Shown: one piece after another, positions 30,858-54,418 of the stretch
Layout: every line of letters begins with the position of its first letter
How positions within the stretch are numbered: the first letter of the stretch is position 1
Origin: an uncultured Acidobacteriaceae bacterium
Lineage (GTDB): Bacteria; Acidobacteriota; Terriglobia; Terriglobales; Acidobacteriaceae
Reading direction: 5' to 3'
DNA length: 64,000 nt
Assembly: GCA_963798925.1 (NCBI GenBank)
Contig: CAWCVD010000007.1
Coordinates: 318,805-382,804 of the forward strand
The notes under the pieces: generated by a model
What the model saw: only the letters and a program-made list of their open reading frames with translations
The model's database searches: none
What the model was told of the DNA's origin: nothing
Translations under genes and position numbers: made by a program

Positions 30858-31817
30858 ATGAAAATCACGAAGCAAAGCCTCCTCCCTGCCGCCGTCGCCA
30901 TCGCGACCATCCTGGCCCCCACATTTGCATCTGCGGCACAGCTCTCCAGCGACGCCAAGGCATCCATTCCAAAAGACATCCAGCAGCTCATCGTCGTCGA
31001 CTACCACGCCATGCAAAACTCGCCTGCTGCCATGGAGCTTAAGGATCGCGTTCTCCCGCCCGAGCTCAAGCGTCTCGAGACGGCTCTTAAGAGCTCTGGC
31101 CTCAAGGTCGATCAGGACGCCGACGTCCTCGCCTTCGCCGCCTTCCGTGACGCCGATGGCAAGGGCACTCGCATCGTCGGCATCGCCCAGGGTCAGTTCC
31201 ACACCCGCGAGATCATGGCCAATTTCACCAAGAACAAGACCAAGCCTAAGATGCTCCGCAACTCCAGCATCTACCCCATGGGCTCCAACGGCATGAGTGT
31301 TGTCTTCCTCAACCAAACCACCATGGTCTTCGGTGATCTCAGCGCAGTCGAGGCAGCGATGGACGCTCGTGACGGCATGGTCCCCGACTTCCTCTCCAAC
31401 GGCGATATGGTCAACGAGATGGGCGTGGTCGACACCAAGGCAGTCTGGAGTCTGCTCGACGCTAAAGGCACTCAGACCATGATGAAGAGCGTCCTCGGCG
31501 ACGCTGCTCAACTCGCCGACTATGACACCGTCAAGAACCGCATGAAGAGCAGCCGCTACACCATGGACTTCCAGAACGGCGTTAAGTTCGATATGGCCGT
31601 AGTCATGTCCGACACCATCACCGCCGCTACAGCTGCGACTCTGATGAAGGGCGTATCGATCATGCGCAAGACCGCCGGCTCGCCCCTCGAAAAGTCAGCT
31701 CTCGATCAGACCACCATCGACTCCAACGCTGGCACTCTGACCGTCTCTTACTCCTCTTCCGACAGCCAGTTCGCCAGTCTCCTCACCTCGCCCCTCTTCC
31801 AGTCCGTCGTCAAATAA
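30858..31817 (+). CDS. hypothetical secreted protein
   Basis: AAGGAG upstream of ATG 30858. Signal peptide MKITKQSLLPAAVAIATILAPTFASA. No family recognised. Confidence 0.6.
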   Translation: MKITKQSLLPAAVAIATILAPTFASAAQLSSDAKASIPKDIQQLIVVDYHAMQNSPAAMELKDRVLPPELKRLETALKSSGLKVDQDADVLAFAAFRDADGKGTRIVGIAQGQFHTREIMANFTKNKTKPKMLRNSSIYPMGSNGMSVVFLNQTTMVFGDLSAVEAAMDARDGMVPDFLSNGDMVNEMGVVDTKAVWSLLDAKGTQTMMKSVLGDAAQLADYDTVKNRMKSSRYTMDFQNGVKFDMAVVMSDTITAATAATLMKGVSIMRKTAGSPLEKSALDQTTIDSNAGTLTVSYSSSDSQFASLLTSPLFQSVVK

Positions 31818-31851
31818 CGCCCTAGTCAAAATAAGCGACAACCCGAATAGG

Positions 31852-31897
31852 AAAACCCCATCTTCGCGCGCCAGCTGAAGATGGGGTTTTCTTTGTG
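31852..31897 (+). terminator. strong rho-independent terminator
   Basis: Perfect 14-bp stem AAAACCCCATCTTC / GAAGATGGGGTTTT with an 11-nt loop, then a T-rich tail. Confidence 0.85.
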
Positions 31898-32177
31898 CTC
31901 GCTTCGATGATCTGTTCCACGCCACGATCATTGTTGTCCGATAGACGACATAACAAAAAATCCATTTCGTTGATGTCCTGATAATTCGGCGCCTCCGACC
32001 AAGTCCAAAATCATCAACATTTTCATGTCGTTGTGCACTTACCAAAAGAATTGTTTGCCGAACAAAATCAGAAGTGGGCCTTCAGGGCCAACCAGCCTTA
32101 CGGAATCGCACATCTTCATGCGATAGTTGCGAGGAAGTTTCTCGATTTTCGCTATCTAGTAATTTAGGGGGTTGCCT

Positions 32178-32819
32178 ATGATCAAACGCCTACTTGTACT
32201 CACTGCCTTAGCTGTTAGCAGTTCTCTCGTCGCCCACGCCGATTCCATTAGCGGTTTCTTTTCCGCTACCGGAACCGATTCCTTTACCGACCCGTCTCCC
32301 ATCGGAATCATCACGTTTGCACCTGGCACTTCGGTAGTCGCAGGAGCAATTGGGCCACCGGGGAGTGCCTTCGCCACCTACCTGACGGACGGCAACCCAA
32401 TCACATTTGTCTCCCTCCCTATTCCCTATCTGAACGGAAATAATACTCCACCTTCAATCCAACTCTTCTCGACCACAGAGAACGGTGAAACCTTCGGTTT
32501 CACTGTAAGCTCCTTTGACGCAGATTTTATTACTGGAACTCCTTCGACCGAGGGGTGCCTTACCGGCGATACCTGTCTCACAGTCACGGGATTTGGAACC
32601 TGGACGGGAACGGGAGTGGTGGACTACACGCCAACTCCTGGTCAGTTCGAATTTACTAGTCAGTATACGGTCGGCCAGGATGTGGGCAGTCTCACATCGT
32701 TCTCTGCGTCGGCATCGGCGACACCTACCCCGAATGTTCCGGAGCCAGCTTCGCTTGCTCTCTTCGGGACAGGTTTGGTCGGGTTCGTGGGGTTCGCTCG
32801 TCGTAAACTCAGCGCTTAA
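32178..32819 (+). CDS. PEP-CTERM sorting-domain protein
   Basis: Signal peptide; C-terminal VPEPASLALFGTGLVGFVGFARRKL (PEP motif + TM + basic tail). Confidence 0.85.
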   Translation: MIKRLLVLTALAVSSSLVAHADSISGFFSATGTDSFTDPSPIGIITFAPGTSVVAGAIGPPGSAFATYLTDGNPITFVSLPIPYLNGNNTPPSIQLFSTTENGETFGFTVSSFDADFITGTPSTEGCLTGDTCLTVTGFGTWTGTGVVDYTPTPGQFEFTSQYTVGQDVGSLTSFSASASATPTPNVPEPASLALFGTGLVGFVGFARRKLSA

Positions 32820-32885
32820 TTAGTTCTTTCACTCATTCCATACGGGAGCCGCAACTGGCTCCCATATGTCTTTAACATCAGTCAT

Positions 32886-33962
32886 CTACCACTGAAGCAG
32901 AAGCAATTCGGTACAGAACGCCGGACCCATGGACCCCATCATGCTGTAGCAACCTGGGCTTCCCGGGCGATTGAGCAGATAGTCCTGCATCACTGTAAGA
33001 ACCGAAACGGACGAGAGATTTCCGCGCTGGCGTAGAGTCTTCCACGATGCGGCCAGAGCATGGGGAGGCAAGTCGAGACTATTTTCCATAGCTCGAAGAA
33101 CCTTGGGACCGCCGCCATGAAAGATAAAGCTGCAAATGTTTCCCATGCTCAGGTCATTGTCAGCAAGAAAGCTCTCGACGGTGTCGCGAAGCTCTGCTTT
33201 AACCAACTCAGGAACTTCAGGCGAGAGGACAATGCTAAAGCCTTTGTGATTGATGGTCCATCCAGTCAGATGCTCCGTGTCGGGATAAAGCGTGGAGCGT
33301 GTGGCAACGACGCGCGGACAAGGATTCCGAACGCTGGTGGGCCTTTGGGCATGCGGCGTCTCCTCTCCAGCCAGGACCACGGCTGCGGCGCCGTCACCGA
33401 ACAGTCCGCTGGCGACCATATGAGCCATGGAATAGTCGTTCTCCTGCCAGGTGAGGGAGCATAGTTCGACAGAGAGAAGGAGGGCATATTGTTTGGGGTA
33501 GGCACGAACATAATCAATGGCGCGCGAAACTCCGGCGGCTCCGCCAACGCAGCCGAGACCGAAGATCGGGGTGCGTTTAACATCCCTGGGGAAGCCCATC
33601 CGGTTGACGAGACGGGCGTCGATGCTTGGACAGGCGATACCGGTGTGGGAAGTAAAGAAGATGGCGGAGATATCCGATGGAGCGAGGCCAGCGTGATCGA
33701 GGGCCATCTCGATAGATTGTTGACCAAGTTCGACAGCTCCCTTGATCCAAAGATCGTTGTTTGGGCCAAAGCCGGAGCGAGTTCCTAAGCTCTCCAGGGG
33801 AAACATAATGTTGCGGAAATCAACGCCACAGCTCGAGTGGAGGCGATCCATGACGCCAGGAACCGACGGGTTGTCTTGGATCCGTTCTTTCAGAGCCTCA
33901 GTGATGACAGCCTGCGGATAACGATGCACAGGAAACGCTGTGCCTACTGATGCAATACGCAT
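32886..33962 (-). CDS. type III polyketide synthase (chalcone/stilbene synthase superfamily)
   Basis: Catalytic-triad contexts GLGCVGGAAG (Cys), FIFHGGGPKV (His), RGNLSSVSVL (Asn); 358 aa. Confidence 0.9.
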   Translation of the reverse strand: MRIASVGTAFPVHRYPQAVITEALKERIQDNPSVPGVMDRLHSSCGVDFRNIMFPLESLGTRSGFGPNNDLWIKGAVELGQQSIEMALDHAGLAPSDISAIFFTSHTGIACPSIDARLVNRMGFPRDVKRTPIFGLGCVGGAAGVSRAIDYVRAYPKQYALLLSVELCSLTWQENDYSMAHMVASGLFGDGAAAVVLAGEETPHAQRPTSVRNPCPRVVATRSTLYPDTEHLTGWTINHKGFSIVLSPEVPELVKAELRDTVESFLADNDLSMGNICSFIFHGGGPKVLRAMENSLDLPPHALAASWKTLRQRGNLSSVSVLTVMQDYLLNRPGSPGCYSMMGSMGPAFCTELLLLQW

Positions 33963-34516
33963 GATGAAAACAACCTCTGGTTAGGGGTGGCGAGTTAAAT
34001 TGCCGGCACCTTACCGTCAGCAATCGATATTCAGATTTGGCAGGAGGTCGTACAAAGCCATCAAGCTGGAATTCATCCAGGGCACAGGAGACCCGCTTGG
34101 GCAATAAGACTGAGTATAAATTAAGGTTGCCCGACGGAAAGATTTTCTTTGCGTGAAATCAAAAAATTATGGCCGGGCCGCGATAGAAGCCCGAGCCACA
34201 CCTGTTTCAGAATGAAATGAAAAAGCGTCCGCGATATCTTCCTCTGTTCCCGCTAGCGGTGGTCGGTAATTCGCTCAGCCGACACACTTCCCATTCCAAC
34301 CGGTTCAATCAACGCCAAGGGCAACACATACAGCTTCGATTTCACAAACGATTCCGTCACTCCATACACTTTGCTGCTCGAGGAATATCGCCAGGAACCC
34401 GCGGCAACATGTATCCCTCAAACTCCAGCTTCGGATGTCGCTTCGCGTGGTGGTGCTGACTCGACTCCAGTTGCTTGAAAGGCGGGAAAAGTTAGCTGTA
34501 AGCAAAAAGTCCCACC

Positions 34517-34544
34517 TTGCTTCGTGTGAAAATTGCGGTACACT
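34517..34544 (+). promoter_or_regulatory. promoter-like element (-35 TTGCTT, 16-nt spacer, -10 TACACT) for the S9 peptidase gene
   Basis: TTGCTT 34517-22 and TACACT 34539-44. The surrounding ~60 nt is about 80 percent identical to 35666-35725. Confidence 0.45.
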
Positions 34545-34574
34545 GCGACTCACACCCACATCAAGGAGCCCATC

Positions 34575-35651
34575 TTGAGCTTTGTCTCTCGGCGTACTGC
34601 TCTGTTGACGGTCCTGTTTCTCGCAGCCCTGCTTCAATTCTCCAGTCACGCGCTCGCCCAAGAGCCCGCTGCCAGACCCGCCCCGGGTGCGGCTGCGACC
34701 CCGGCAGCGCCCACTTTCTCACCGCCCAACGACAACTCCGATGTCGTCCTCAAGCGTATGGACGATCTTCTGTGGTATCAAAAGGTCGGCGATATCGCTG
34801 ACATCGACAAGTCCGAGTACACGGGTCCACCGAATGAGCACCTCAAGAACAAAAAAGCACCAGGCGCAACCAACCCAATCCTGCTCCACGCCTACACGTT
34901 CATCCCGAAGAGACTGGATCGCAGCCACAAGCAGCCGCTCATCGTCTTCGTCCATCAAGGTGTCCACGCGTCCCTCGACACTACAATCGATGCGCACTTG
35001 ATTCGTGAACTGCTCGAACAAGGCTATCCGATCGTAGCTACGGACTACCGCGGCAGCACAGGCTACGGCCGCCCATTTTACGAAGAGATCGACTATGGCG
35101 GTCACGAGATCGACGATGTCTACCTCGGTATGAAGTGGATGCTGGAGCGCTACAGCTTCCTCGACCCCAAACGGGTCGGAATCGTAGGCTGGAGTCATGG
35201 CGGTCTCATCACTCTGATGAACATCTTCGCCCACCCTCACGACTACGCTGCCGCCTATGCAGGCGTTCCCGTAAGCGATCTGGTCGCGCGAATGGGTTAT
35301 GAGAGTGAGGGCTACCGTCAGCTCTACTCCGCGCCGTATCATCTCGGCGAATCCGTTCACGATGACATTGCGGAGTACCGCAAACGTTCACCAGTCAACC
35401 ACGCGAAGGAACTGGATACCCCGCTTCTGATTCACACAAACACGAACGACGAGGACGTCAACTACCTCGAGGTCGAGCATCTCATTCAGGCTCTCAAGTT
35501 CGAAGGCAAACAGTTCGAGTACAAGGTCTACGACAACGCCCCAGGTGGCCACTACTTCAACCGCATGGACACACCCCTGGCGATCGAGTCCCGCAAAGAG
35601 GTCTATACCTTCCTCGCAAAGTATCTGCATCCCGATAGTACGACGCACTGA
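34575..35651 (+). CDS. secreted S9-family serine peptidase / alpha-beta hydrolase
   Basis: TTG 34575 preceded by AAGGAG (6 nt). Signal peptide ...SSHALAQ. DYRGSTGYG and nucleophile GWSHGG. ORF track start 34533 is a TTG inside the promoter motif. Confidence 0.85.
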   Translation: MSFVSRRTALLTVLFLAALLQFSSHALAQEPAARPAPGAAATPAAPTFSPPNDNSDVVLKRMDDLLWYQKVGDIADIDKSEYTGPPNEHLKNKKAPGATNPILLHAYTFIPKRLDRSHKQPLIVFVHQGVHASLDTTIDAHLIRELLEQGYPIVATDYRGSTGYGRPFYEEIDYGGHEIDDVYLGMKWMLERYSFLDPKRVGIVGWSHGGLITLMNIFAHPHDYAAAYAGVPVSDLVARMGYESEGYRQLYSAPYHLGESVHDDIAEYRKRSPVNHAKELDTPLLIHTNTNDEDVNYLEVEHLIQALKFEGKQFEYKVYDNAPGGHYFNRMDTPLAIESRKEVYTFLAKYLHPDSTTH

Positions 35652-35667
35652 ACCCGCTCTTTCTCGC

Positions 35668-35695
35668 TTGCTTCATAGCAAGATTGCGGTACACT
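35668..35695 (+). promoter_or_regulatory. promoter-like element (-35 TTGCTT, 16-nt spacer, -10 TACACT) for the M20 gene
   Basis: TTGCTT 35668-73 and TACACT 35690-95. Paralogous to 34517-34544. Confidence 0.45.
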
Positions 35696-35791
35696 TCGAC
35701 TCACATCCACAAAAAGCACCATCCTGAACCTGGCTTCTCGCCGTTCTCTGCCTTCTCGCGAAGGAGACACAGAAAGACCAAGGAGTTCCGT

Positions 35792-37447
35792 ATGCGTAAT
35801 GGAAAGTTTTGCCTCATCTTCGGACTGCTGGCGACACTTGCGGCGCCGGCTCTTAGCCAGACCCCATCGATCACCCCGGAACAGAACGCCGAACTGAAAC
35901 AGCAGATATTGAAACAGGTCGACGGCAACGCCAAACTGGTCCAGGTCATGATCGACACGCTGTACAGTTTTGGCGAACTGGGTTTTCAGGAGTTCGAGAC
36001 GTCGAAGTACCTGACGGACCTGCTGGAGAAGAACGGTTTCAAGGTCGAGCATGGAATCGCCGGAATCCCGACTGCTTGGATGGCGACATGGGGAAGCGGT
36101 GAACCGGTCATCGCTCTCGGCTCAGACCTCGATTGCATTCCACAAGCCTCGCAGAAGCCCGGCGTCGCCTATCACGATCCGATTATTCCCGGCGCTCCCG
36201 GTCACGGCGAAGGGCACAACTCCGGTCAGGCCGTGAACATCGTCGCCGCCTTAGCCGTGAAGGACGTGATGATCAAAAATCATCTCCCCGGCACCATTAA
36301 GATCTGGCCCGGGGTAGCGGAGGAACTGCTTGGGAGCAAGGCTTATTATGTTCGCGACGGCTACTTCAAGGGAATTGATGCTGTTCTGTTCTCGCACGTC
36401 GGAGACAACCTCGGCGCGTCGTATGGCGGATACTCGACCAACGGGCTCGTCTCCGTTCAATACAACTTCCACGGCGAGAGCGCCCATTCCGCAGCCGCTC
36501 CGTGGCGGGGGCGCAGCGCACTCGATGCTGTAGAGCTAATGGACGTAGGCTGGAACTTCCGTCGCGAACACCTTCGCCTGCAGCAGCGCTCACACTACGT
36601 GATCCCCAACGGCGGCGACCAGCCGAACGTTGTGCCGCAAAACGCAGCAGTCTGGTATTACTTCCGCGAGGCCGACTATCAGCACATCAAAGAGCTGTGG
36701 GAGATCGGCGACAACATGGCTAACGGCGCTGCGCTGATGACGAATACCAAATGGGATTCGACCCTGATTGGCACAGCGTGGCCCGGTTTCTTCAACAAAC
36801 CAATTGCGGAAGAGGTCACAGAGAACGCAAAGCTCATCGGCCTCCCGAAATGGTCCGACGACGATCAAACGCTCGCCAAAGCGCTGCAGCACGAACTGAA
36901 AGTCCCCGAAAAAGGACTTGCGACGAAGCTCGACGAGTTGAAGACACCGAACGATCCCGAGAAGTATTACGGCGGCGGATCGGATGACATCGGCGACGTC
37001 TCGTGGGTCGCGCCGACGATCGTTCTTCGTTATCCGTCGAACATTCCCAACCTCCCCGGCCACAACTGGGCCAACGGGATCGCGATGGCAACTCCAATCG
37101 CCCATAAAGGCGCCATCGCAGGCGCAAAGGTTCAGGCCCTCACTCTCTTTGATCTAATGACCAAGCCGGAGCTGTTAACCAACGCGAAAGCGTACTTCAA
37201 TGACGTTCAAACCAAGGACGTAAAGTACCAGCCCTTCCTTCGCCCAACGGACAAACCATCCATCTGGCTGAACAAGGCGACGATGGACAAATACCGCCCC
37301 GAGATGAAGAAGTACTACTACGACGCAACCAAGTACCCAACATATCTCGATCAACTTGGCATAAAGTATCCAACCGTTCGCACAGCCTCAACGCCCCCTG
37401 CCGCTACACCAACAGGCGAGGCCGAGGACGACGGCTCCTTACGTTAA
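35792..37447 (+). CDS. secreted M20-family amidohydrolase/peptidase (AbgB-like)
   Basis: ATG 35792 with AAGGAG 6 nt upstream. Signal peptide ...APALSQ. PGHGEGHNSGQ metal site region and M20 dimerisation-like middle. Confidence 0.8.
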   Translation: MRNGKFCLIFGLLATLAAPALSQTPSITPEQNAELKQQILKQVDGNAKLVQVMIDTLYSFGELGFQEFETSKYLTDLLEKNGFKVEHGIAGIPTAWMATWGSGEPVIALGSDLDCIPQASQKPGVAYHDPIIPGAPGHGEGHNSGQAVNIVAALAVKDVMIKNHLPGTIKIWPGVAEELLGSKAYYVRDGYFKGIDAVLFSHVGDNLGASYGGYSTNGLVSVQYNFHGESAHSAAAPWRGRSALDAVELMDVGWNFRREHLRLQQRSHYVIPNGGDQPNVVPQNAAVWYYFREADYQHIKELWEIGDNMANGAALMTNTKWDSTLIGTAWPGFFNKPIAEEVTENAKLIGLPKWSDDDQTLAKALQHELKVPEKGLATKLDELKTPNDPEKYYGGGSDDIGDVSWVAPTIVLRYPSNIPNLPGHNWANGIAMATPIAHKGAIAGAKVQALTLFDLMTKPELLTNAKAYFNDVQTKDVKYQPFLRPTDKPSIWLNKATMDKYRPEMKKYYYDATKYPTYLDQLGIKYPTVRTASTPPAATPTGEAEDDGSLR

Positions 37448-37518
37448 CTCCGTTCTGCACCATAGCCGCATTGTTCTGAATTAACGAAGCTCTCACCCAC
37501 CCGGAGGCTCTTTCGTCC

Positions 37519-40140
37519 ATGCGTTCTATTCGTTCGGCTCTTTTGTTCCCCGCTCTCCTTGTAGCCTCGGCCCTCACCTCCACCCTCCTCGCCCAGTCCG
37601 CCGTCACCTCGCCCGAAAAATTCTTTGGCTTCCAACTCGGAGCCGATCGCAAGATGGCTCGCTGGGACAAGATCGTCGAATACTACAACCTCATCGAGAA
37701 GCAGAGCGGCGGCAAGATGAAGGTCATCAACATGGGCCCCACCATGAACGGCAATCCCTTCCTCATGGTCATCATCACGTCACCAAAAAACCTGGCGAAC
37801 ATCGACACCATCAAGAAAAACAATCTCACCATCGTCAACCCGCACAGCACGCCTGAAGCCGAGATCAAAAAGCTCATCGCCACCGGCAAAGTCATCGAAG
37901 TCCAGTCCATGAGCATGCACGCCACTGAGATCGGCGGCACGCAGATGGCTCCCGAGCTCGCCTACGATCTCATCACTCGCACGGACGAGGACACCCAGCG
38001 CATCCTTGACAACACCGTCCTGATCGAAGTCCCCTGCTTCAATCCCGACGGCGAGATCATGGTAACCGACTACTACAACTCCACCCTCGGCACGCCATAC
38101 GAGGGATCCAACTATCCCTCCCTCTACGCCAAATACATCGGCCACGACGACAACCGCGACGCTCTCCTCACCTCTATGAACGAGAGTCAGTACATGGCCA
38201 GTCTGCTCTTCACCGGCTGGCGCCCCGAGGTCTACGTCGACCATCACCACCAGGGCAGCTACGGCGCGCGCATCTCCCTCCCGCCCTACGCCGAACCCAC
38301 TCGTCCGTACGCCGACCCGCTCATCTGGCGCGAGGTCGCCTGGTACGGCGCTCAGATGGCCTACAAAGAGACCGAGAACAACTACACCGGAGCCATCAAC
38401 AACGCCATCTACTCCGGCTGGGGACACTTCGGCTTCCACTGGATCACGCCCTTCCACAACATCGACGGCATGCTCACCGAATCCGCCAGTGCGAAGCTAG
38501 CCTCCCCGATGTACATCCTTCCCGAGCAGCTAACCGGCGGTGCCCGCAATCTGCCAAAGTACGAAGAAGAGACCATCTTCCCCGATCCATGGCCCGGCGG
38601 CTGGTGGCACCTTCGCGACATCGTCAACATGCAGAAGACCGCAGCCTGGGCCGCCCTTGATCTCGCCGCCCGCAATCGCGAGACCGTCCTCTGGAACGCC
38701 TACCAGAAGGCAAAAAACCAAACTGCTCGCGGCGCAGCGGCCGACACTCCCAACTACGTCATCCCCAGCATTCAGGAAGATCCCATCACCGCGAACTTCC
38801 TCGTCCAGAAGCTCCTCGTCCAGGGCATCGACATCCAAAAGGCCACCAAGCCCTTCACTTCACCCGACGGACACGCCTATGACGCCGGTTCTTACATCAT
38901 CTCTCTCGCCCAACCGAAGATGGGTCTCATCCGCAATCTCCTCGATCGCAACTTCTTCCCAGACAACGACTGGACCCGAGACAAGAATGGCGATCCCATC
39001 CGTCCCTACGACCTGTCGACCGACAATGTAGCCGAGTTCATGGGCGTCCGCGTCGATCACGTTGCAGGCCCGCTCAACGTCGAAGCGAAACTCATCACCG
39101 AAGCTCCGCTCGCACCCGGAAAGGTCGCTGCAGGTTCGTCCGGCTATCTCCTCAGCGCCAAACTCGACGCCTCCTACAAGGCAGTCAATCTCCTCCAGGC
39201 CAAGGGCGTTGCAGTCAGCCGCATCGTCAAACCAGTCGACGGAGCCACCGTCGGCGACTTCGTCGTAGCTAAAGGCTCCGAAGCCGATATCCGCGAGATC
39301 GCCAAATCCACCGGTGTCGATCTCGCACCTGCCCCCACCATCCCTGCCGACAGCACCATCGCACTCAAGCAGAAGCGCATAGGCCTCTATCAGCGCTACT
39401 ACGGCGGCAACGTCGACGAAGGCTGGACCCGCTGGCTACTCGAGCAGTGGGGCTACAACCCAACCAGTCTCCTCGATCCCGAACTTAAGAAGGGAGACCT
39501 CAATGCAAAGTTCGACGTCATCGTTATCCCCGATGACTCAACCGCCACCCTCACCGGCGAAACCGGAACAGCCGGCGGACAACGAGGCGGCGGGGGAGGT
39601 GGCGAAGGCTTCGGTCGCACCCCCACTGACTACGCCCCCGAGTACCGCAGCGGCTTCGGCGAGGAAGGTATAACTGCGCTCAAGTCTTTCGTCCAGAAAG
39701 GTGGCACTATCGTCACCCTCGGGACCGCCAGCGACTTCGCCATCGAAAAACTCGGAGTCCACGCGCGCAACATCGTAGGCAACCTGCCCACCAAGCAGTT
39801 CTGGTGCCCCGGCTCCACCCTCAAAGTCTCCGTCGATCCAACCAACCCACTAGGTTACGGTATGCCCAAACAGAGCCTCGCGCTCTACCTTCAGGGCGAC
39901 CCCGTATTCCAGATCACCCCAACCAACTCCAACGAACGCTACTCTGTCATTGTCAGCTACGAAAAAAGAGACATTCTGCAGAGCGGCTGGCTCGTAGGCG
40001 AAGGCAACATTACAGGAAAAGCTGCCATGATCTCCGCCGAAATGGGTAAGGGCAAAGTCATCCTCATTGGCTTCCGCGCCCAGCACCGCGCCCAGACCTA
40101 CGGAACCTTCAAACTCTTCTTCAACAGCTTGACCAACTAG
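37519..40140 (+). CDS. large secreted M14-family zinc carboxypeptidase-like protein
   Basis: Signal peptide; HxxE zinc motif in SMHATEIGG; 873 aa with a long C-terminal extension. Confidence 0.75.
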   Translation: MRSIRSALLFPALLVASALTSTLLAQSAVTSPEKFFGFQLGADRKMARWDKIVEYYNLIEKQSGGKMKVINMGPTMNGNPFLMVIITSPKNLANIDTIKKNNLTIVNPHSTPEAEIKKLIATGKVIEVQSMSMHATEIGGTQMAPELAYDLITRTDEDTQRILDNTVLIEVPCFNPDGEIMVTDYYNSTLGTPYEGSNYPSLYAKYIGHDDNRDALLTSMNESQYMASLLFTGWRPEVYVDHHHQGSYGARISLPPYAEPTRPYADPLIWREVAWYGAQMAYKETENNYTGAINNAIYSGWGHFGFHWITPFHNIDGMLTESASAKLASPMYILPEQLTGGARNLPKYEEETIFPDPWPGGWWHLRDIVNMQKTAAWAALDLAARNRETVLWNAYQKAKNQTARGAAADTPNYVIPSIQEDPITANFLVQKLLVQGIDIQKATKPFTSPDGHAYDAGSYIISLAQPKMGLIRNLLDRNFFPDNDWTRDKNGDPIRPYDLSTDNVAEFMGVRVDHVAGPLNVEAKLITEAPLAPGKVAAGSSGYLLSAKLDASYKAVNLLQAKGVAVSRIVKPVDGATVGDFVVAKGSEADIREIAKSTGVDLAPAPTIPADSTIALKQKRIGLYQRYYGGNVDEGWTRWLLEQWGYNPTSLLDPELKKGDLNAKFDVIVIPDDSTATLTGETGTAGGQRGGGGGGEGFGRTPTDYAPEYRSGFGEEGITALKSFVQKGGTIVTLGTASDFAIEKLGVHARNIVGNLPTKQFWCPGSTLKVSVDPTNPLGYGMPKQSLALYLQGDPVFQITPTNSNERYSVIVSYEKRDILQSGWLVGEGNITGKAAMISAEMGKGKVILIGFRAQHRAQTYGTFKLFFNSLTN

Positions 40141-40687: not shown

Positions 40688-40689
40688 CT

Positions 40690-46333: not shown

Positions 46334-46339
46334 GAATCG

Positions 46340-46888
46340 ATGATCCGTAAACTTTGCGTACAAAGCAGACATATAGGCTTGACCTCCTTACTCATGTGCC
46401 GCATTGCCTGTGTCGGCAGTTTTGCGAAAGCAAATTGCTCTAACCCGCCCATTTCGACAACCGACACAGTTCATATTAGTTCGGTTTTGCCGTCGACCCT
46501 CGCGAATATCGGTTACAGAGTAACCAATATTCGGTCGGATTCAGTGCTGGGAGAGGCATGGGCAACCATCTCTAACTGTTCTCACCCGGATTGGCCGGAA
46601 TTTGCCCTTCCAGTTAATGGAAAAGGTTGGACTAGCAAATCTCAAGAAGCATCTTCCCCTTCGATCCATGACGCTAAAGGCCATGTCATTCACGCCGGCG
46701 AAATCGTTCAGCTATGGAAACAGGAGACCAGCTTACGCATTGAGACTCTGGGAGTTTCAGAGGAAAATGGCGGCTTGGGCGAGACGATTCGAGTACGGTT
46801 ATTGCGCAGAAGCACTGGCGGTCAATCTGGGCCAGAGGATCTCTCGGGAGTGGTCCGGGGTCCGTCGAATGTGGAGATACAGCAGTGA
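46340..46888 (+). CDS. flgA: flagellar P-ring formation chaperone FlgA
   Basis: Position between flgG and flgH. C-terminal SAF-like VIHAGEIVQLWKQETSLRIETLGVSEENGGLGETIRVRL. Confidence 0.7.
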   Translation: MIRKLCVQSRHIGLTSLLMCRIACVGSFAKANCSNPPISTTDTVHISSVLPSTLANIGYRVTNIRSDSVLGEAWATISNCSHPDWPEFALPVNGKGWTSKSQEASSPSIHDAKGHVIHAGEIVQLWKQETSLRIETLGVSEENGGLGETIRVRLLRRSTGGQSGPEDLSGVVRGPSNVEIQQ

Positions 46889-47661: not shown

Positions 47662-47671
47662 GTGGGGAACC

Positions 47672-48841
47672 ATGCGTTCTGAATTGGCTAGACCGGGAGT
47701 GTCACAAATTTCACGATGGTGGAAGAGCAACGTCTATTGTTGGACTACGGTTGCGCTCCTGATCTCTGCTTCCACCTGGACCTCGGCCTTGGATCCGGGT
47801 GCGCCCAGGCAGGCGCGCGTCAAGGACATCTCGTCAATCGAAGGTATTCGGGACAATCAACTGGTTGGCTACGGCATTGTCGTAGGTCTTCAGGGAACTG
47901 GCGATACACAGCAAACTGCCTTTCCGATCCAAACGCTAGCAGCGACACTGCTCCGAATGGGGGTGAGTGTTCCAGCGTCTTCGATCCGCGTACAGAATCT
48001 GGCCGCGGTCTTCATCTCGGCAACGCTGCCTCCTTTCGCACGATCAGGTACAAAACTGGATATCACGGTATCTTCGGCGGGTGATGCGAGGAGTCTCGAA
48101 GGTGGCTTGCTTCTGATGACACCTCTATATGGAGCGGATGGAAAGATCTATGCCCAGGCTCAGGGATCACTAGTAGTCGGAGGGTATTCGGTTGCCGCGA
48201 ATGGAAATGTAAAGCAGTTCAACCATCCCAATACAGCCAGGGTTCCTTTCGGGGCTATTGTGGAACGCGGAGTTTCGTTGGACTTGGACGGGAAGAATCG
48301 GTTTTCTTTGTTGCTGAATGATGCTGATTTCCGTAGCGCGGAGGCGATGGCTAGCGCTATCAACCAATCGCTCAAGCGGCCAGCGGCTCGAGTGTTGGAT
48401 AGTCGGAGAATTGAGTTGTCGGTTGATCAAGGGCAAGAGGTCCCTGCGCTGCTGGCGGAGGTCGAATCGATTGAAGTTCCTGTTTTCCCTCGGTCCAAGG
48501 TAGTTGTCAACGAGCGCACGGGAACGGTGGTTATCGGAGGGACGGTTGTCTTGCAGCCAGTATCGATTTTGCATGGCGGTTTGGCGGTGAATGTAGTCAG
48601 TGAGTTTCACGTATCGCAGCCAAGTGCCTTCTCCTCGGGCGGGACGACTCAGGTTGTGCAGCAGACAAGAATCGATACACAGGACAAGCCGGTCAGTCGG
48701 ATCGAGTTGAAGCAAGGAGCGACAGTGGATGATCTTGTTCGCAGCTTGCAGACAATCGGAGCCTCGGCGCGTGACGTCATCTCGATTCTTCAGGCGATGA
48801 AATCCGCCGGTGCGCTAGAGGCGGAGATTGAGGTGTTATGA
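47672..48841 (+). CDS. flgI: flagellar P-ring protein FlgI
   Basis: RVKDISSIEGIRDNQLVGYGIVVGLQGTGD ... LQAMKSAGALEAEIEV. Confidence 0.92.
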   Translation: MRSELARPGVSQISRWWKSNVYCWTTVALLISASTWTSALDPGAPRQARVKDISSIEGIRDNQLVGYGIVVGLQGTGDTQQTAFPIQTLAATLLRMGVSVPASSIRVQNLAAVFISATLPPFARSGTKLDITVSSAGDARSLEGGLLLMTPLYGADGKIYAQAQGSLVVGGYSVAANGNVKQFNHPNTARVPFGAIVERGVSLDLDGKNRFSLLLNDADFRSAEAMASAINQSLKRPAARVLDSRRIELSVDQGQEVPALLAEVESIEVPVFPRSKVVVNERTGTVVIGGTVVLQPVSILHGGLAVNVVSEFHVSQPSAFSSGGTTQVVQQTRIDTQDKPVSRIELKQGATVDDLVRSLQTIGASARDVISILQAMKSAGALEAEIEVL

Positions 48842-49155
48842 AGATTAGCTCTGATGTTTCGAGTCAGTCGGCGACATTTCAGGAACAGAGGCGAGCCAAA
48901 TTGGTCGATGCTTCGCAACAGTTTGAGGCGGCTATGCTTCAAGAGCTGCTGAAGCCCATGCAGCATGGCCAGGGTGATTGGGATGGCGATGGTAAGAACG
49001 ACGACTCGGCCTCAGACACGATGAGCAGTTTTGGCACCGAAGCGGTTGCGAAGGCTATCTCGGAAAGAGGCGGATTTGGGCTAGCGAAGATGATTGTCGC
49101 GAAGGTAACACTGAAGCACGAGAAAAATTCCGAAAAGAACACGGCTCAGTACTAA
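48838..49155 (+). CDS. flgJ: rod-binding protein (FlgJ N-terminal domain only, no muramidase domain)
   Basis: ATGA overlap with flgI. AKLVDASQQFEAAMLQELLKPM motif; only 105 aa. Confidence 0.7.
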   Translation: MKISSDVSSQSATFQEQRRAKLVDASQQFEAAMLQELLKPMQHGQGDWDGDGKNDDSASDTMSSFGTEAVAKAISERGGFGLAKMIVAKVTLKHEKNSEKNTAQY

Positions 49156-49179
49156 AGTTTGTCAGTTTGCCGCCGATAT
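49153..49179 (+). promoter_or_regulatory. sigma-28 (FliA)-type promoter upstream of flgM
   Basis: TAAA (49153-56), N15, then GCCGATAT (49172-79), against the consensus TAAA-N15-GCCGATAA. 24 nt upstream of the flgM ATG, which has a GGAGG SD. Confidence 0.6.
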
Positions 49180-49202
49180 ATTCAAGTAGACGGAGGATTA
49201 CG

Positions 49203-49502
49203 ATGAGTTTTATCAGTGGTTTAGGTAGTTTGCAGGCTGGGGGCGGCAGGGTGGCACCCTCAGAGACAAAGCCGGTCAAGGCGATCCCACCCGAAGGGCA
49301 GGTCGAAGGAACGGTCGCTGATGTGCAGCATGGGGATCAGACAGAGCTGAGTTCGACCGGCGGCTTGGTGGCTCAGGCGCTGGAGAGTTCCGATGTACGG
49401 ACTGCCAAGGTTGCGGCTCTGCAGCAGGCGATAGTCACCGGAACCTACAACGTGCCATCGTCCGGCGTGGCAGACAAGATTATCCAGTCCTTGTTGGAAT
49501 AG
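49203..49502 (+). CDS. flgM: anti-sigma-28 factor FlgM
   Basis: ~100 aa. C-terminal DVRTAKVAALQQAIVTGTYNVPSSGVADKII matches the FlgM sigma-binding region. ATG 49203 within ORF 49167..49502. Confidence 0.75.
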   Translation: MSFISGLGSLQAGGGRVAPSETKPVKAIPPEGQVEGTVADVQHGDQTELSSTGGLVAQALESSDVRTAKVAALQQAIVTGTYNVPSSGVADKIIQSLLE

Positions 49503-49504
49503 CT

Positions 49505-49765
49505 ATGGCCTGCGAGCAAAGTCTAGCCGCCATTCTTGATGAGACCGCCGAAGCTCTCAGCCATCTTGATCTGATCAAGCTTCAGGGTTTGGAGCAACGG
49601 ATCCTTCTGTTGGCACAGAGTAGCGCGAGGTTGGAAACGAACGGAATCGATATTTTGCTCCCGAAGAGAAGTCGATTGGAGATCATTCTTCAGAATTGCA
49701 AAGTCAACCTGGATGCGCTGAGGCGTCTCCATGCCAGGAATGCGAGGAAGCAATGGGCACAATAA
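49505..49765 (+). CDS. flgN: possible FlgN-like export chaperone
   Basis: Small helical protein in the flgM-flgN-flgK position. Sequence signature is weak. Confidence 0.4.
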   Translation: MACEQSLAAILDETAEALSHLDLIKLQGLEQRILLLAQSSARLETNGIDILLPKRSRLEIILQNCKVNLDALRRLHARNARKQWAQ

Positions 49766-51157
49766 GCTCTTTAGTCGATATCGCGCAGCAGGCGCTTCTA
49801 GCCGACCAGGAGGCCCTTAACGTTACTTCAAACAATGTCGCGAATCAGAACACCGCCGGGTACACGCGGGAGGTTGTAAGCTTTCAGTCGGTTGACGCCG
49901 TTACGTTGAGTGGGAGCGCGGTCGGCACCGGTGTTACGGCGACGGCTACCTCGCAGCGGGACCGGGTTCTGGAGCAGCAAGTGCAGCAACAGACTCAGGT
50001 TCAGGCGCAGTCAGGGGCACTCGAATCCGCGTTGGAGCAGATTCAAAATACCTTCGGCCTTAGCTCAACGTCCAGCTCTGCCAGTTCGACGGCGCTTGGT
50101 ACCGCGACCGACTCCTTTTTCAGTGCGCTCTCATCATTGGCGGCCAATCCTTCGGATACGGCGACCCGGCAGAGTGTGTTAAGTGCGGCCAATGCTCTGG
50201 CTGGGGCTCTTAACTCCGCAGCCAATCAGCTGGCGCAGACTTCTTCGAGCCTGAATCAACAGGTTGCGGGCGATGTCGGCCAGGTGAACTCGCTCACAAC
50301 GACGATTGCATCGCTCAATGCTGAGATATCCTCCCTCAGTCCCAACGCGGATGCCGGTAGTCTGGAAGATCAGCGGCAGCTTGCGATCACGCAATTGTCT
50401 CAACTGGTCGGCCTGGATCAGATTTCGACCGAACAGAACGGCATTACTTTGACGACGAGCGGCGGCGCGGTTCTGGTTAGCGGCAGCAAGGCATTTGCGA
50501 TGGGCACGACGCAGGTTGGGGGGACCACCCACATCTTAGCCGGAGTTGGCGGACAGGATGTAACTTCGAGCCTGACTGGGAGGCGATCTTGGCGGCGTTC
50601 TCGCGGCGAGAGACAAGCAGTTGCCGAGTTACCAGAGCGCTCTCGACACATTGGCTTTCAGCATCGGCACAAAAGTCAATCAGCAGAACGAGCTTGGAGT
50701 TGATGCCAGCGGCAATCCCGGGGCGGCACTCTTTACTCTTCCGACATCGGCGAGCGGAGCTGCAGTGCAGATCCAGGTCGCCACAACCAATCCCAGTGCG
50801 ATGGCTGCGGCTGCCTCTGGCGAAGGGTCAGCCGGGAACACGAACGCTTCGGCGCTGGCTGCTCTTTCGACCGCCGCGATCGCAGGTGGTCAGACGGCTT
50901 CGGGATTTCTTACCTCCTTTCTTGGCCAGGTCGGCAGCGATACTGCCGCGGCGAAGACCAATAACAGTGCGCAGCAGGCGACGCTGACGCAGTTGACGAC
51001 ACAGAGAGATTCGCTCTCCGGCGTGTCACTGGACGAAGAGGCGTCAAATCTAACGCAGTATCAAAGGGCTTATCAGGCGGCGTCGCAGGTGTTCAACATT
51101 GCCAATTCGATCATGGCCAGTGCTCTGAACCTTGGGGTCGAGACGACTGTGACCTAA
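49753..51157 (+). pseudogene. flgK: flagellar hook-associated protein 1 FlgK, interrupted by one frameshift
   Basis: N-terminal part in ORF 49696..50703 from ATG 49753 (LNVTSNNVANQNTAGYTRE). After ...SSLTG the family continuation GDLGGVLAARDKQLPSYQSALDTLAF... runs to the C-terminal GVSLDEEASNLTQYQRAYQAASQV in the frame of ORF 50621..51157. The shift is at about 50578-50583. Confidence 0.75.
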
Positions 51158-51208
51158 TGGCCGATTAGCCATTGCCGAATTCCAAGACTAAAGCTGAGGA
51201 GCATGATC

Positions 51209-52108
51209 ATGAGAGTAGATCCGAACTATATAACCAATTTGTCGGTGTCGCTGGACCAGTCGACCAAGGAGGAGGATACGTTGACCTCCGAGTTGTCGAG
51301 CGGATTGCGCGTCGCCTCACTCTCGGATGATCCGGTTGCGGCGGAACAGAGCATGCTGCTTGGGAGTTCGATTGCGCAGGACGATACCTTCGTGCAGACC
51401 GCTTCCGATGAAGCGTCGCGGATGCAGGTTGCTGATTCGACGTTGGGCGAAGTCGTCAGCGAGGTGACCAGTGCGATTTCGACGGCCGTCTCGGGTAACA
51501 ATGGGACGGACAATGCGAGCGATGTTGCCAGCGTTGCTCAAACGTTGAGCGGAGTTCGCGATCAGGTGCTTTCCCTGGCGAATACGAGCTACCAGGGGCA
51601 GTATTTGTTTGGCGGTAGCGACGGTTCAGTTGCTCCTTTCTCTCTTGATACGACGACCGATCCGGCGACGGCGAATTATGCCGGAGACAATAAAATTCAA
51701 TATGCTGAGACTCCCAGCGGACAGAAGATTCAGGTCAATCTTCCGGGATCCGCCGTGTTCGGTAATGGGAGCTCCGGCGTGCTGGGAGCGTTGAATAAGT
51801 TGATCTCAGATTTCTCTGGTGGTGCGGCGTCGGCTACGATTGCGACGGACACCTCCGCGCTGACTGCGGCGCTAGGTCAGTTGTCCTCGCAGCGTTCGAC
51901 GCTCGACAGTGCGCTGAGCCGGCTACAGTCGAATAGCATGTATGTGCAGACTGAAGAGACCCAGTTGACCGTCGCGCAGGGCAACCTGGTGTCTGCGGAT
52001 CCAGCGACGGTCGCGACCCAACTGTCTCAGGCTGAGACCCAGCATCAGGCTTTGCTGAGCGTGATTAATGCTCTAGGGAGTTCGGACCTGTTTGGCCTGA
52101 TGAAGTAA
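51209..52108 (+). CDS. flgL: flagellar hook-associated protein 3 FlgL
   Basis: MRVDPNYI...SSGLRVASLSDDPVAA ... flagellin-like C-terminal helix. GAGGAG lies 9 nt before ATG 51209. Confidence 0.8.
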   Translation: MRVDPNYITNLSVSLDQSTKEEDTLTSELSSGLRVASLSDDPVAAEQSMLLGSSIAQDDTFVQTASDEASRMQVADSTLGEVVSEVTSAISTAVSGNNGTDNASDVASVAQTLSGVRDQVLSLANTSYQGQYLFGGSDGSVAPFSLDTTTDPATANYAGDNKIQYAETPSGQKIQVNLPGSAVFGNGSSGVLGALNKLISDFSGGAASATIATDTSALTAALGQLSSQRSTLDSALSRLQSNSMYVQTEETQLTVAQGNLVSADPATVATQLSQAETQHQALLSVINALGSSDLFGLMK

Positions 52109-52145
52109 CGCTCTTTCCTGCGGCGTCATGAATTCAACCTGGGGA

Positions 52146-52435
52146 CCCCCTCCTACCCTGTTTTTGCGCAAAGTCTTCATAAGACGTAACTTACCTTTGG
52201 ACTAAGTCTATTAGTCTGCCTAATTCAAGGGCTTGAGATTCAAAGTCTTCTTTCTAAATAAGTTAGCCCCGGAGGGTCTATTTTCCCAGGGGCTTGCTTG
52301 TTTTCCCCACGGGGCTTGCTTGTTTTTGATCTATATATCTAGTGTAGCGGGTTGACCATAACTAAAATGCCACGCGGATGTTGTTATTGGGTAACAGGTT
52401 AGGTGGTTTTGGGACTTGACACGCCATTATTGGGC
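52146..52435 (-). repeat. right arm of the inverted repeat flanking the motility module
   Basis: rc 52325-52435 matches 43441-43551 (89/111). rc 52146-52205 matches 43639-43696 and 27974-28034. The middle part carries extra GC hairpins (AGCCCCGG..., CCCCACGGGG). Confidence 0.8.
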
Positions 52436-52557
52436 TGTTCTTGGAATAAAACGCTCTAAGTGACTGATGGAACAATGGTTAACTAGGATACGTTGGGCGG
52501 GCTCCAAAGGGGGTGGGGCAGCATGGAAAACGTGGAGAGCGAACGGTTGTCCGATAG

Positions 52558-52594
52558 AAAGCAGATTCCTCCGCTGTGCTGCGGAATGACAAGG
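52558..52594 (-). repeat. REP-like hairpin element, copy 2
   Basis: Its reverse complement CCTTGTCATTCCGCAGCACAGCGGAGGAATCTGCTTT is 36/37 identical to 13003-13039. Confidence 0.7.
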
Positions 52595-52717
52595 CATAGG
52601 GTGCGGAATTATAAGGATGCGTGGATCCACAAGGATGCTGTGGACCGACGAGGAGGCTAGGGACTGACAAGGAGGCTGGGGACTGACAAGGAGGCTGTGG
52701 AATGACGTGCGAGACAG
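52583..52717. repeat. tandem array of about seven 18-22 nt units seeded from the REP arm
   Basis: Units start at 52583, 52605, 52623, 52642, 52661, 52680 and 52699. Best copies are GGACTGACAAGGAGGCTGG, GGACTGACAAGGAGGCTGT and GGACCGACGAGGAGGCTAG. Confidence 0.75.
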
Positions 52718-52929
52718 CGGAACGGTCCGCGCGAAGGACCGGCAAAGTCAAAGACTATGGCGATCAGTTTGTTCAGTTTTTCAGTCAGGGACGGCAATAG
52801 CAAAGACGAGGTGACGGTAAGGCAAGAGCGGAGAAATTGGGCTACAGGTCCGGAGCATTAACGAGAGTCATACGAGAAGACGGGAACGGTGCGATGAAAT
52901 TTTGTGGCTTGATCCCTTTTCGATGGAAC

Positions 52930-54418
52930 TCATCTTGGGATGAGGGTGAAGCTTTCGATGGAAACTTTGGCTCCGGCACGGGCGCGCTCGGGGGCGGGCA
53001 CGAAGAAGATTGTGATCTCGTCAAATCGATGGATTGTGGCCGAACTCGAGATGGGGAATCGAAGTACCTCTTCTACAGGCGGGCGGTTTAGTGGAATCTG
53101 AGCAGGTTTGCTGGATGCGATTGTTCGCAGCCCAAGGTCGTGGGATGGCTCTCCTATGGAGCTTGAGTCTGCGAGACGTAGACCGAGTGCGATTATTCCG
53201 GGGCGGACGTCATTATTGGTAATGGCAACTTCGATTTCACTGCAACAGGTCAGGTCGATCGAGGTGCCTAGATTCTGGTAGGCCGCCATCAACAGAGGCG
53301 CCGAATTGGTGGAGTGCACATTGGCGTAGGTAGACCTTCCGTGAGCTATATGAGCGCGTGGTCCTGGCCGCTTGCTAGGTGCTTTGAAGTACCAGTATTG
53401 CCCGTCAAAGGGAATTACTACAGGTTTGGCTGCCCTTCCATTTGCGAGCGAATCGGCGGTGCGGCCTGGGTGGCACGATCTCTGTCTTTTTTATCGGCGG
53501 CGGCCATAGGATGATGCCGACGTATTCAGAGCCGGGTACGTCTGCTTCGGTTGATTCGTGGGTAAACAGGGCCGGCTTATGAGATGGCCTATTTGAGGCA
53601 TACGATTTACCTCCGAGCCAAGGAATGAGTGAAAGCATTGTGAAGACGATGGCGAGTGCGCAGAGCAAGATCGACTGTCTGCTGCCGGTAAATCTCTCCT
53701 TCGCTCTCGGATCGCTCCAACGCCAGACGAACGTGACGAGACAGGTCGAGAGCAGGATGCCGGCGACGATGAGATACCCCGCGGCAGCGAAGATGAGGGC
53801 TGTTTGACCGCAGATTGCCATGAAGAAGGCGCGCATGGGACGGAAGCCGGCTATGGGTAGGCCATAGAGACTTGGCAGGTCGCTGGTGTACCAGGCCTGA
53901 GGTTTTTCCTGCCCTGATTCGGCGGTTGCTGGGAACAGGCGTCTGACACTCAGGACCAAAGTGATGGCAGCGAAGGCTAGAGCCAGGAACATGGAGGGCG
54001 ATTGCTGGCGATAGAGCAGGGTGATGCAGGGGAAAAATATCCAGCCGACTCCCGCTTTCTTCGATAAGGAGATCAGGCTGAAGGAAGGTTTGATTTTGAG
54101 AAAGAGCCAGGGAATTGAAGTTCCTACGGCACCCACGACAGCGGTGACGGCAATGTATTTGATGGAGAGAGAGAAGATCGTGGTCCATGAGAGGGTGTGC
54201 GCCTTCGGCAACTGGCAAGCGAGAGATGCGATCATGGCTGCCGAAAGGCAACCTGTAACGATCAGTAACCCTGTTTCATTGGGATCTGAGTCGCCAGGTG
54301 GGAGTGCAGCTAAACGGTTCGTTCTGCGAGAAGCATCTTTGGGGGCAGAGTCTGCGGACTCATCTCTCAACGCGGAAGGTAGTTGCAGTGGACTCATGTC
54401 GCGATATACAGCCCTCAC
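52930..54418 (-). pseudogene. multi-pass membrane protein with C-terminal soluble domain, split by a frameshift
   Basis: ORF 53405..54418 (several TM helices) ends ...YVGIILWPPPIKKTEIVPP... A second frame is open from about 53490 and reads ...AAKPVVIPFDGQYWYFKAPSKRPGPRAHIAHG... into ORF 52930..53319. No family recognised. Confidence 0.55.

Follow-up and report, generated by a model that had tools for sequence, protein, structure and literature searches.

The stretch considered here is a 64,000-nucleotide window from an uncultured Acidobacteriaceae bacterium (GenBank assembly GCA_963798925.1, contig CAWCVD010000007.1, positions 318,805 to 382,804 of the forward strand; a contig of 1,457,303 bp from the metagenome-assembled genome of an Edaphobacter-like member of the family), in which an excess of C over G on the top strand gives way to an excess of G over C. 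About 55 open reading frames (ORFs) were annotated with Pfam, and the skew was then measured per codon position, the value at third positions being given as GC3 skew. The sign changes inside flgA, in an operon for flagellar rod, ring and hook-associated proteins that lies between two long domains of opposite strand bias. Comparison loci are designated by L numbers, and the features of the window, in its own coordinates, are as follows.

1 to 10,700: accessory stretch with weak negative skew (GC3 skew -0.04 to -0.44), with SDR, a truncated dienelactone hydrolase (DLH), Dyp peroxidase, AHSA1, DUF1801, a desaturase and a two-component pair
10,700 to 31,817, both strands: left core domain as delimited by GC3 skew, top strand C+A-rich at full amplitude, with META, gpmI, recR, ybaB, dnaX, SET, TPR, DinB, BlaR1/BlaI, PadR-ADOP1, PspC, lysA, yebC, PagL, FTCD and U
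30,858 to 31,817: U, a conserved hypothetical protein of 319 amino acids without a Pfam domain
31,818 to 43,436: variable island with a PEP-CTERM protein, a type III polyketide synthase (PKS; minus strand), peptidases S9/M20/M14 and PadR-ADOP2 (frameshifted in the window)
43,437 to 43,582, plus strand: left copy of the E-element (about 140 nucleotides), a conserved core and a GC hairpin that terminates the CheX-RR2 operon
43,707 to 44,685, minus strand: CheX-like phosphatase and single-domain response regulator RR2, identified with Pfam; top-strand GC3 skew -0.23 and -0.58, negative domain
44,739 to 52,108, plus strand: flagellar rod/ring/hook-associated operon flgF-flgG-flgA-flgH-flgI-flgJ-flgM-(flgN)-flgK-flgL, identified with Pfam
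46,447 to 46,783: support interval of the sign change inside flgA (fit on G and C at third positions, best 46,711)
52,109 to 52,930: non-coding stretch between flgL and a minus-strand membrane-protein gene, with an AT-rich part and a 19-bp tandem array
52,305 to 52,437, minus strand: right, inverted copy of the E-element
52,930 to 54,418, minus strand: membrane protein without assigned function, split into ORFs of 129 and 337 amino acids (one gene of 434-495 amino acids in relatives), positive domain
54,543 to 64,000: right core domain, top strand G+T-rich, with orf77, DLH, rpsO, pnp, an MBL-fold hydrolase, unk304 and unk143 on the plus strand and unk601 and unk291 on the minus strand

In 2-kb windows, the top-strand GC skew ranges from -0.2 to -0.36 at 10-31 kb and from +0.16 to +0.30 at 52-64 kb, with means of about -0.27 over 10-31.8 kb versus +0.23 over 52.9-64 kb. 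The corresponding counts of G and C are 4753/8261 at 10,001-31,800 (binomial p = 4e-210) and 3965/2482 at 52,901-64,000 (binomial p = 1e-76). The initial annotation had proposed a flip from a C-rich left to a G-rich right side on the basis of six 60-nucleotide hand counts; all six were exact on recount (10/22, 13/23, 10/29, 23/11, 25/12 and 28/18), and the windowed calculation confirms the sign change. The cumulative G-C curve over the window has its minimum at 46,696, so that the polarity is, as had been noted, the one conventionally assigned to an origin.

Most of the bias is carried by third codon positions, where it tracks the DNA strand rather than the gene, and the proposed independence of gene orientation holds, because genes on both strands share the local sign. 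In the left domain, the top-strand GC3 skew amounts to -0.30 to -0.75 in nine plus-strand and seven minus-strand genes, e.g., gpmI (-0.73), lysA (-0.70) and FTCD (-0.63) on the plus strand and dnaX (-0.61), recR (-0.62) and BlaR1 (-0.69) on the minus strand. The right domain shows +0.3 to +0.6 in both gene orientations, with the MBL-fold hydrolase (+0.55), unk304 (+0.56) and unk143 (+0.60) on the plus strand and unk601 (+0.46) and unk291 (+0.33) on the minus strand. Third-position AT skew flips together with GC skew, from A>T on the left to T>A on the right, so that G and T are enriched on one strand and C and A on its complement, the pattern expected from an excess of C-to-T change on a single strand. 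The pairing of G+T with C+A strands and the maximum at third positions bear out the replication-type signature that had been suspected.

Both domains continue beyond the window edges, as read over 10 kb on each side in an ENA contig with 99.7% identity that belongs to the same species (ERZ26871208, contig_39181_np1212, 803,737 bp, with the boundary near 382 kb). The weakly skewed accessory stretch at 1-10 kb reaches to about -7 kb, the GC skew is strongly negative again (-0.22 to -0.32) from -10 to -7 kb, and on the right it is still +0.2 to +0.36 at 64-74 kb. Since both skews persist past the edges, the negative domain spans at least 56 kb and the positive domain at least 27 kb. With a G:C ratio of about 4:1 at third positions, i.e., at silent sites, the bias is unusually strong, and its amplitude in the window (about 0.3 in total, about 0.6-0.75 as GC3 skew) lies far above the weak skew tabulated for cultured Acidobacteria (GC skew index [GCSI] 0.03-0.08; PMC3025954 supplement). 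Values that are extreme for a bacterium, i.e., a total GC skew of about 0.3 and third-position skews of 0.6-0.8, recur in the window, L083, L085, L095, L097 and L153, and a DNA glycosylase gene in L097 has a third-position skew of +0.83.

A change-point fit on G and C at third positions places the sign change at 46,711, within flgA (support 46,447-46,783) and within the transition zone of 31,800-53,400 that had been outlined before. The homologous change-point in L095 is at 8,780 (8,750-8,795), again in flgA. Along the flagellar operon the skew runs from -0.34 in flgF to +0.34 in flgJ, and a first logistic fit had described a gradual transition of 7-9 kb; this was dropped, because a sharp step fits equally well within the module (43.7-52.1 kb). 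The module carries the bias at half amplitude, with plateaus of about -0.30 and +0.22 versus about -0.6 and +0.5 in the core flanks, and this contrast in amplitude is largely what produces the apparent gradient. A skew driven by transcription from the divergent RR2/flgF promoter was also rejected, since flgF and flgG carry the wrong sign.

The comparison with relatives was based on the gene order dnaX...lysA-yebC-PagL-FTCD-U-RR2-flgF..flgL-DLH-rpsO-pnp. Across the flip, the window, L095, L093 and many metagenome contigs share this order without interruption, and these loci show no breakpoint at the flip. The sister species L001/L095, whose PNPase is 94% identical and whose four-fold sites are 53% identical to those of the window, has kept both order and pattern, with top-strand values of -0.68 (FTCD), -0.42 (U), -0.54 (RR2), -0.42 (flgF), -0.16 (flgG) and 0 (flgA), followed by +0.04 (flgH), +0.32 (flgJ) and +0.32 (DLH). 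In a third species (L097/L098; GCA_037975565.1 and GCA_037200825.1; four-fold-site identity 0.47 for L097), the sign change is also located in flgA. Here the module CheX-RR2-flgF..flgL (L097 1-7,433, and L098) is inverted relative to DLH-rpsO-pnp, over about 9 kb centred on the skew boundary, and the genes of L097 have kept their coding-strand bias (flgJ +0.42, flgI +0.24, flgA -0.06, flgG -0.25, flgF -0.48, RR2 +0.57). Because each inverted gene retains its own bias, the top strand of L097 is still negative and then positive, with the change at flgA. In the large contigs of this species the boundary lies near 1.242 Mb of JBBCBH010004020.1 (3,874,178 bp, GCA_037975565.1) and near 3.219 Mb of JBBCHL010000001.1 (3,953,860 bp, GCA_037200825.1). 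The left flank lysA...U is also kept in L083 and L085 (-0.55 to -0.7), where the flip occurs 1-9 kb from U into unrelated right-hand genes (+0.56 to +0.77), at full amplitude on both sides. The left core genes are likewise negative in L083, L085 and L095 and in the metagenome loci of types A and B described below. Given full amplitude on both sides at about one substitution per four-fold site between species, it may be argued that the bias is in equilibrium with the present replication regime and is not a relic.

The boundary is not present at the same place, or at all, in every collinear relative. In L093, the block SET-TPR-DinB-...-lysA-yebC-PagL-FTCD-U-RR2-flgF..flgL-orf77-DLH-rpsO-pnp follows the gene order of the window, with the dnaX 3' end at the locus edge, and every gene is positive (+0.1 to +0.65); identical gene order thus occurs with and without the flip. 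Metagenome loci gathered by a scan with U fall into four states of the collinear block. Type A resembles the window, with a flip between flgG and flgH (L101, L118, L139/140 and L142), and type B has the flip at FTCD/U (L153/154, L147, L149, L170 and L172). The values of L153/154 exemplify the latter state: lysA -0.62, yebC -0.48, PagL -0.38, FTCD -0.25, U +0.13 and RR2 +0.34, followed by flgF +0.39, flgG +0.54, flgH +0.66 and flgI +0.75. Type C is negative throughout (L133, L156 and L158/159) and type D positive throughout (L160, L165, L167 and L175), as is L093. Every sign change within the collinear block runs from negative to positive, and flips of this polarity also occur next to rpsO-pnp in loci of two other genera (L014 and L020). 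Near the block, a sole positive-to-negative change was seen in L128 at about 6,600, where it is accompanied by a break in synteny to the left of yebC and by a copy of the approximately 140-nucleotide E-element.

Between U and the flagellar module, the stretches at 32-37.4 kb (type III PKS +0.28) and 40.6-43.3 kb show a weak skew or one of opposite sign. The view of the initial annotation that the mixed zone at about 32-44 kb is a mosaic of foreign or variable DNA agrees with its mixed skew and with its presence or absence among relatives. The stretches at 31.8-44.2 kb and 52.1-54.5 kb are both missing in L093; in Edaphobacter sp. SMAG_U2513 (L002/L093), which lacks the island, the spacer between U and RR2 measures 72 bp. 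The island site holds 3.7 kb of other genes in L095 and different genes again in L083 and L085. With its presence/absence polymorphism and atypical composition, the zone at 31.8-43.4 kb is a horizontally acquired island, and its weak or opposite bias fits a recent arrival. The stretches at 31.8-43.4 kb and 1-10 kb would then both be later insertions that have yet to take on the local bias. The bias of the PKS gene, opposite to that of its surroundings, suggests a recent insertion or inversion. Its pairing with the PEP-CTERM protein (32,172-33,962) was found in a single one of the relatives examined (L085 11,296-13,073). U, at the conserved edge of this hypervariable insertion spot, is about 90% identical among very many soil Acidobacteriaceae (4,559 homologues).

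The flagellar module is enclosed by two inverted copies of the E-element, whose arms at 43,440-43,551 and 52,325-52,436 are 80% complementary over 112 nucleotides. A search with a sequence-only covariance model found 28 copies of this dispersed element in 88 sources, and it has no match in Rfam. Its conserved core (…GCATGTCAAGYCCCAAAACCANCTAACC…TTGGCRTWTTAGTT…ATCAAA) is followed by a GC hairpin, which is the intrinsic terminator of the neighbouring gene. All 28 copies are oriented in accordance with the sign of the skew in the 3 kb around them, and the element is therefore strictly polar relative to whatever sets the bias. Further copies are located in L086 (12,695-12,875, about 2 kb left of the window) and in L095 (5,689-5,833 and 14,620-14,756), where the inverted pair encloses the module as in the window; type A has the boundary between two copies in inverted orientation, and type B a single copy at the boundary. 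The inversion of the module in L097 is explained by the ability of the copies to recombine. The E-elements were rejected both as a pair of origins and as a fork trap of the Ter type, because either role predicts a uniform, near-zero or positive-then-negative bias of the module, as opposed to the observed step from negative to positive, and recurrent inversion of the module next to an origin outside it fails for the same reason, as it predicts a uniform bias. The E-element is hence regarded as an associated, unexplained feature of the boundary.

Right of the module, a 19-bp tandem array at 52,578-52,706 comprises 6.7 direct copies with the consensus GCTGTGGAATGACAAGGAG and TGTGGA cores. It adjoins an AT-rich segment of about 360 bp (52,120-52,480, GC 0.44-0.46), at a distance of 5.5 kb from the change-point and without conservation in L095 or L093. 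Judged by its sequence features, the stretch at 52,109-52,930 appears to be the most origin-like part of the window, and the array looks iteron-like. The array is species-specific and absent from L095, the entire stretch at 52.1-52.9 kb is absent from L093, and no initiator-like gene is present among the neighbouring ORFs.

We interpret the flip as a genuine boundary of a replication-associated mutational strand bias that has been maintained over evolutionary time and would mark a change of fork direction in Edaphobacter-like Acidobacteriaceae. The bias with its strand logic, its extent and conservation, and the intact synteny across the flip are direct observations; the replicative cause is inferred, and the case for an origin at this pole derives from its polarity. 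Our leading, though tentative, explanation is an origin region of an unrecognised type, for which the polarity, the mechanism and a literature search without a bacterial exception speak together. At oriC, the GC-skew switch reportedly coincides with the minimum of the cumulative G-C skew. The flip resembles such a switch in its C-rich to G-rich polarity, its independence of gene strand (with a local cumulative minimum), the maximum at third positions, the long homogeneous domains and the coupled AT skew, in which T exceeds A on the G-rich strand, as is the case for bacteria without PolC. Under the canonical rule of a G-rich leading strand, forks would diverge within the flagellar rod/ring operon at about 46.4-47.7 kb (flgA/flgH), the block from dnaX to U would be replicated leftward and that from flgI to pnp rightward, and the window would span the origin region. 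An amplified deamination of cytosine on the lagging-strand template could then produce the G+T-rich strand with conventional polarity.

A considerable body of observations weighs against an origin. The absence of dnaA and of a DnaA-box cluster from the window, which had been recorded at the outset, was confirmed and extended: tblastn with an E. coli DnaA query, run against 1.64 Mb of loci, found dnaA neither in the window and its 10-kb extensions nor in any of about 180 related loci. DnaA boxes (TTATCCACA-like, at most one mismatch) number 6 in the window versus 6.0 expected, none of them clustered, and no enriched 600-bp window was found near the flips of the window, L001, L014, L020, L083, L085 and L153. 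No parS site (at most three mismatches) was detected in the window or the loci of the clade, and dnaA/dnaN, gidA/B, parAB and rpmH-rnpA are all missing among the Pfam-annotated ORFs. The change-point falls within a coding sequence and shows no conserved motif at the nucleotide level, the boundaries of types A and B have no 28-mer in common, and unlike at oriC no intergenic unwinding region is apparent at the switch itself. Its position relative to flanking genes varies, from flgA in type A to FTCD/U in type B, and it is absent from types C and D; a sequence-defined origin should not float or vanish in this way within collinear DNA. The boundary zone is hypervariable, island-rich and invertible (window, L083, L085, L093, L095 and L097), the amplitude of the bias is about halved within approximately 5 kb of the boundary, and synonymous divergence is highest there (four-fold identity of 0.33-0.44 at flgG-flgI versus 0.5-0.68 in the flanks). 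Most left-hand genes would be head-on to an origin placed here, as had been pointed out (about 75% of the coding bases at 10-46 kb), and in L083 14 of 15 genes converge on the boundary. In sum, the boundary combines the polarity of an origin with an absence of origin hallmarks and with a behaviour closer to that of a terminus. Any origin here would differ from a recognisable oriC with DnaA boxes adjacent to dnaA.

It is quite conceivable, if doubtful, that the flip is instead a terminus where forks converge, in a clade with inverted polarity, i.e., with a C+A-rich leading strand, a G+T-rich lagging strand and a meeting point that drifts by kilobases to tens of kilobases. Such a drift, as replichore lengths change, would account for the floating boundary, the islands, the small symmetric inversion, the lower amplitude and the increased synonymous change. 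A shifting boundary in island-rich, variable surroundings is what was found: it floats or is absent across types A to D, the change-point lies in coding DNA without a motif, and the contents of the island spot differ among the window, L095, L083, L085 and L093. The inversion across the boundary in L097, the half-amplitude bias and four-fold divergence peak at flgG-flgI, the convergence of genes on the boundary in L083 and L085 and the failure to find dnaA, DnaA boxes and parS point in the same direction. In L007, a locus with weak skew from another Acidobacteriaceae genus, the flagellar-rpsO-pnp block (about 3,500-10,000) straddles the opposite, positive-to-negative polarity (flgM +0.23, flgK -0.09, pnp -0.30), and the weak skew of cultured Acidobacteria would imply a clade-specific mutational process here. 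The cumulative skew has no maximum at the flip, its polarity is the reverse of that of every described terminus, and the literature search for a bacterium with a C-rich leading strand turned up mitochondrial cases only. A G-rich leading strand is, to our knowledge, otherwise universal in bacteria. Moreover, the G+T and C+A strands are exactly those predicted by cytosine deamination on the lagging-strand template with conventional polarity, and in L093 a terminus of this kind would leave 22 of 25 genes head-on. No dif-like 28-mer was present in 2.48 Mb, which included the region from -10 to +74 kb and the flips of relatives; the best match (19/28) is at chance level. The queries were the dif sites of E. 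coli, B. subtilis, Caulobacter, Haemophilus, Catenulispora (actinobacterial), Koribacter, Solibacter and A. capsulatum, with those of Koribacter and Solibacter taken as predicted sequences (PMC3025954 supplement). Conventional polarity is weakly supported in the phylum by the location of rpsO-pnp on the G3-rich strand in 17 of 25 decidable loci and of both tRNA genes found on the G-rich strand (n = 2). Gene orientation across related loci gave no usable polarity signal (103 versus 111 genes), the left/right comparison at 56 pnp loci is confounded by the low GC3 skew of pnp itself, and plasmids of related hosts provided one Acidisarcina plasmid only. Scans of the window and loci for tRNAs, Rfam families and rRNAs yielded nothing relevant, and the literature on origins and skew in Acidobacteriaceae nothing usable beyond the predicted dif sequences and the GCSI values.

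Three further explanations are much less probable. According to the initial annotation, a rearrangement or mosaic was at least as likely as an origin, which is not borne out, given the collinear order and a sign change in flgA in sister species that differ at about 50% of four-fold sites. A junction that joined opposite replichores by inversion or translocation, with the skew on one side as a relic, could be seen in the synteny breaks just right of U in L083 and L085 and in the left-hand genes that mostly point at the flip; it is largely refuted and very improbable, because dnaX-pnp is collinear in L093 and PagL-pnp in L095 with no breakpoint at the flip, many metagenome contigs keep the order, only negative-to-positive flips were observed, and a relic would have decayed unevenly at about one substitution per four-fold site instead of showing full amplitude on both sides. 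A mosaic created by homologous exchange or horizontal transfer, in which an all-negative block was fused to an all-positive one and the flip is historical, is unlikely as well. Both versions of the block do exist in relatives, the flagellar module has a lower GC3 and half amplitude as if imported, and the island is clearly acquired; against this stand domains of at least 56 and 27 kb, a pattern that is stable over several species with a single polarity at all boundaries of the collinear block, and the expected decay of an imported bias toward the local equilibrium. Equally improbable is a non-canonical or secondary initiation site, with a DnaA-dependent oriC elsewhere, e.g., a captured iteron origin of the plasmid type at 52.1-52.7 kb or a start primed by transcription. 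The AT-rich stretch with its 6.7 direct 19-bp repeats (52,120-52,706) and the origin-type polarity without canonical hallmarks would suit it, but L095 has the flip without the array, L093 lacks the stretch, flgH-flgL to the left of the array are positive in three species, and no initiator-like gene is adjacent. Natural second origins are, as far as we know, not established in bacteria.

With respect to other known systems, the flip shares with termini of the dif/XerCD and fork-trap types the lack of a fixed gene neighbour, the islands and the small symmetric inversion around it, the reduced bias with raised synonymous change, and its presence, shift or absence in close relatives of the same gene order, but no Tus- or RTP-like gene was recognised. 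Symmetric inversions around a replication pole are reportedly visible as X-alignments between genomes. The module in L097, which is inverted between repeats of 112 nucleotides and whose genes keep their strand bias, as an inversion centred on a pole would leave them, resembles them, although it measures about 9 kb rather than hundreds of kilobases and its repeats are copies of a small dispersed element. The only documented sign reversal of GC skew over a whole replicon is that of animal mitochondria after inversion of the control region, with comparable four-fold amplitudes; there, however, the origin had moved, in a tiny genome with strand-displacement replication and without a change in which strand is biased, so that this is an analogy only.

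These observations are relevant because skew minima are routinely used to call origins and, on that basis, to orient assemblies and to estimate growth rates of uncultured bacteria from coverage. At this locus the skew rule and the anatomy disagree, with the polarity of an origin and the movement of a fork-meeting point. If the origin reading is correct, the Acidobacteriaceae of this clade use an unrecognised type of initiation site without a fixed sequence. If the flip is a terminus, it would be the first bacterial exception to the rule that the leading strand is G-rich, with an amplitude otherwise found only in mitochondria. Another dominant source of replication-linked mutation would have to be assumed, e.g., errors or damage arising on the template of the leading strand or in the course of lagging-strand synthesis, and for these abundant soil bacteria both the origin calls and the growth-rate estimates that are based on skew would refer to the wrong pole. 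With their bias of about 4:1 at silent sites, these genomes form a natural system in which insertions and inversions could be dated with high sensitivity from the extent of their drift toward the local bias.

Several ORFs of the window are split or truncated, namely, ADOP2 (40,615-43,325), flgK (49,696-51,157, with the frameshift at about 50.6-50.7 kb), the membrane protein (52,930-54,418) and the DLH at 1,930-2,421. Intact counterparts, i.e., an ADOP of 877, a FlgK of 466, a membrane protein of 434-495 and a DLH of 303 amino acids, are present in the 99.7%-identical contig or in relatives, and the split ORFs are probably long-read homopolymer errors and not pseudogenes. Beyond the window, at about 66-68 kb in its coordinates, a reverse transcriptase of 521 amino acids (RVT_1) is encoded directly 3' of uvrB (L091 6,592-8,157); as a single-copy gene, it was rejected as a multi-copy intron. 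A ParE toxin pair is located close to the uvrB-reverse transcriptase position in L097.

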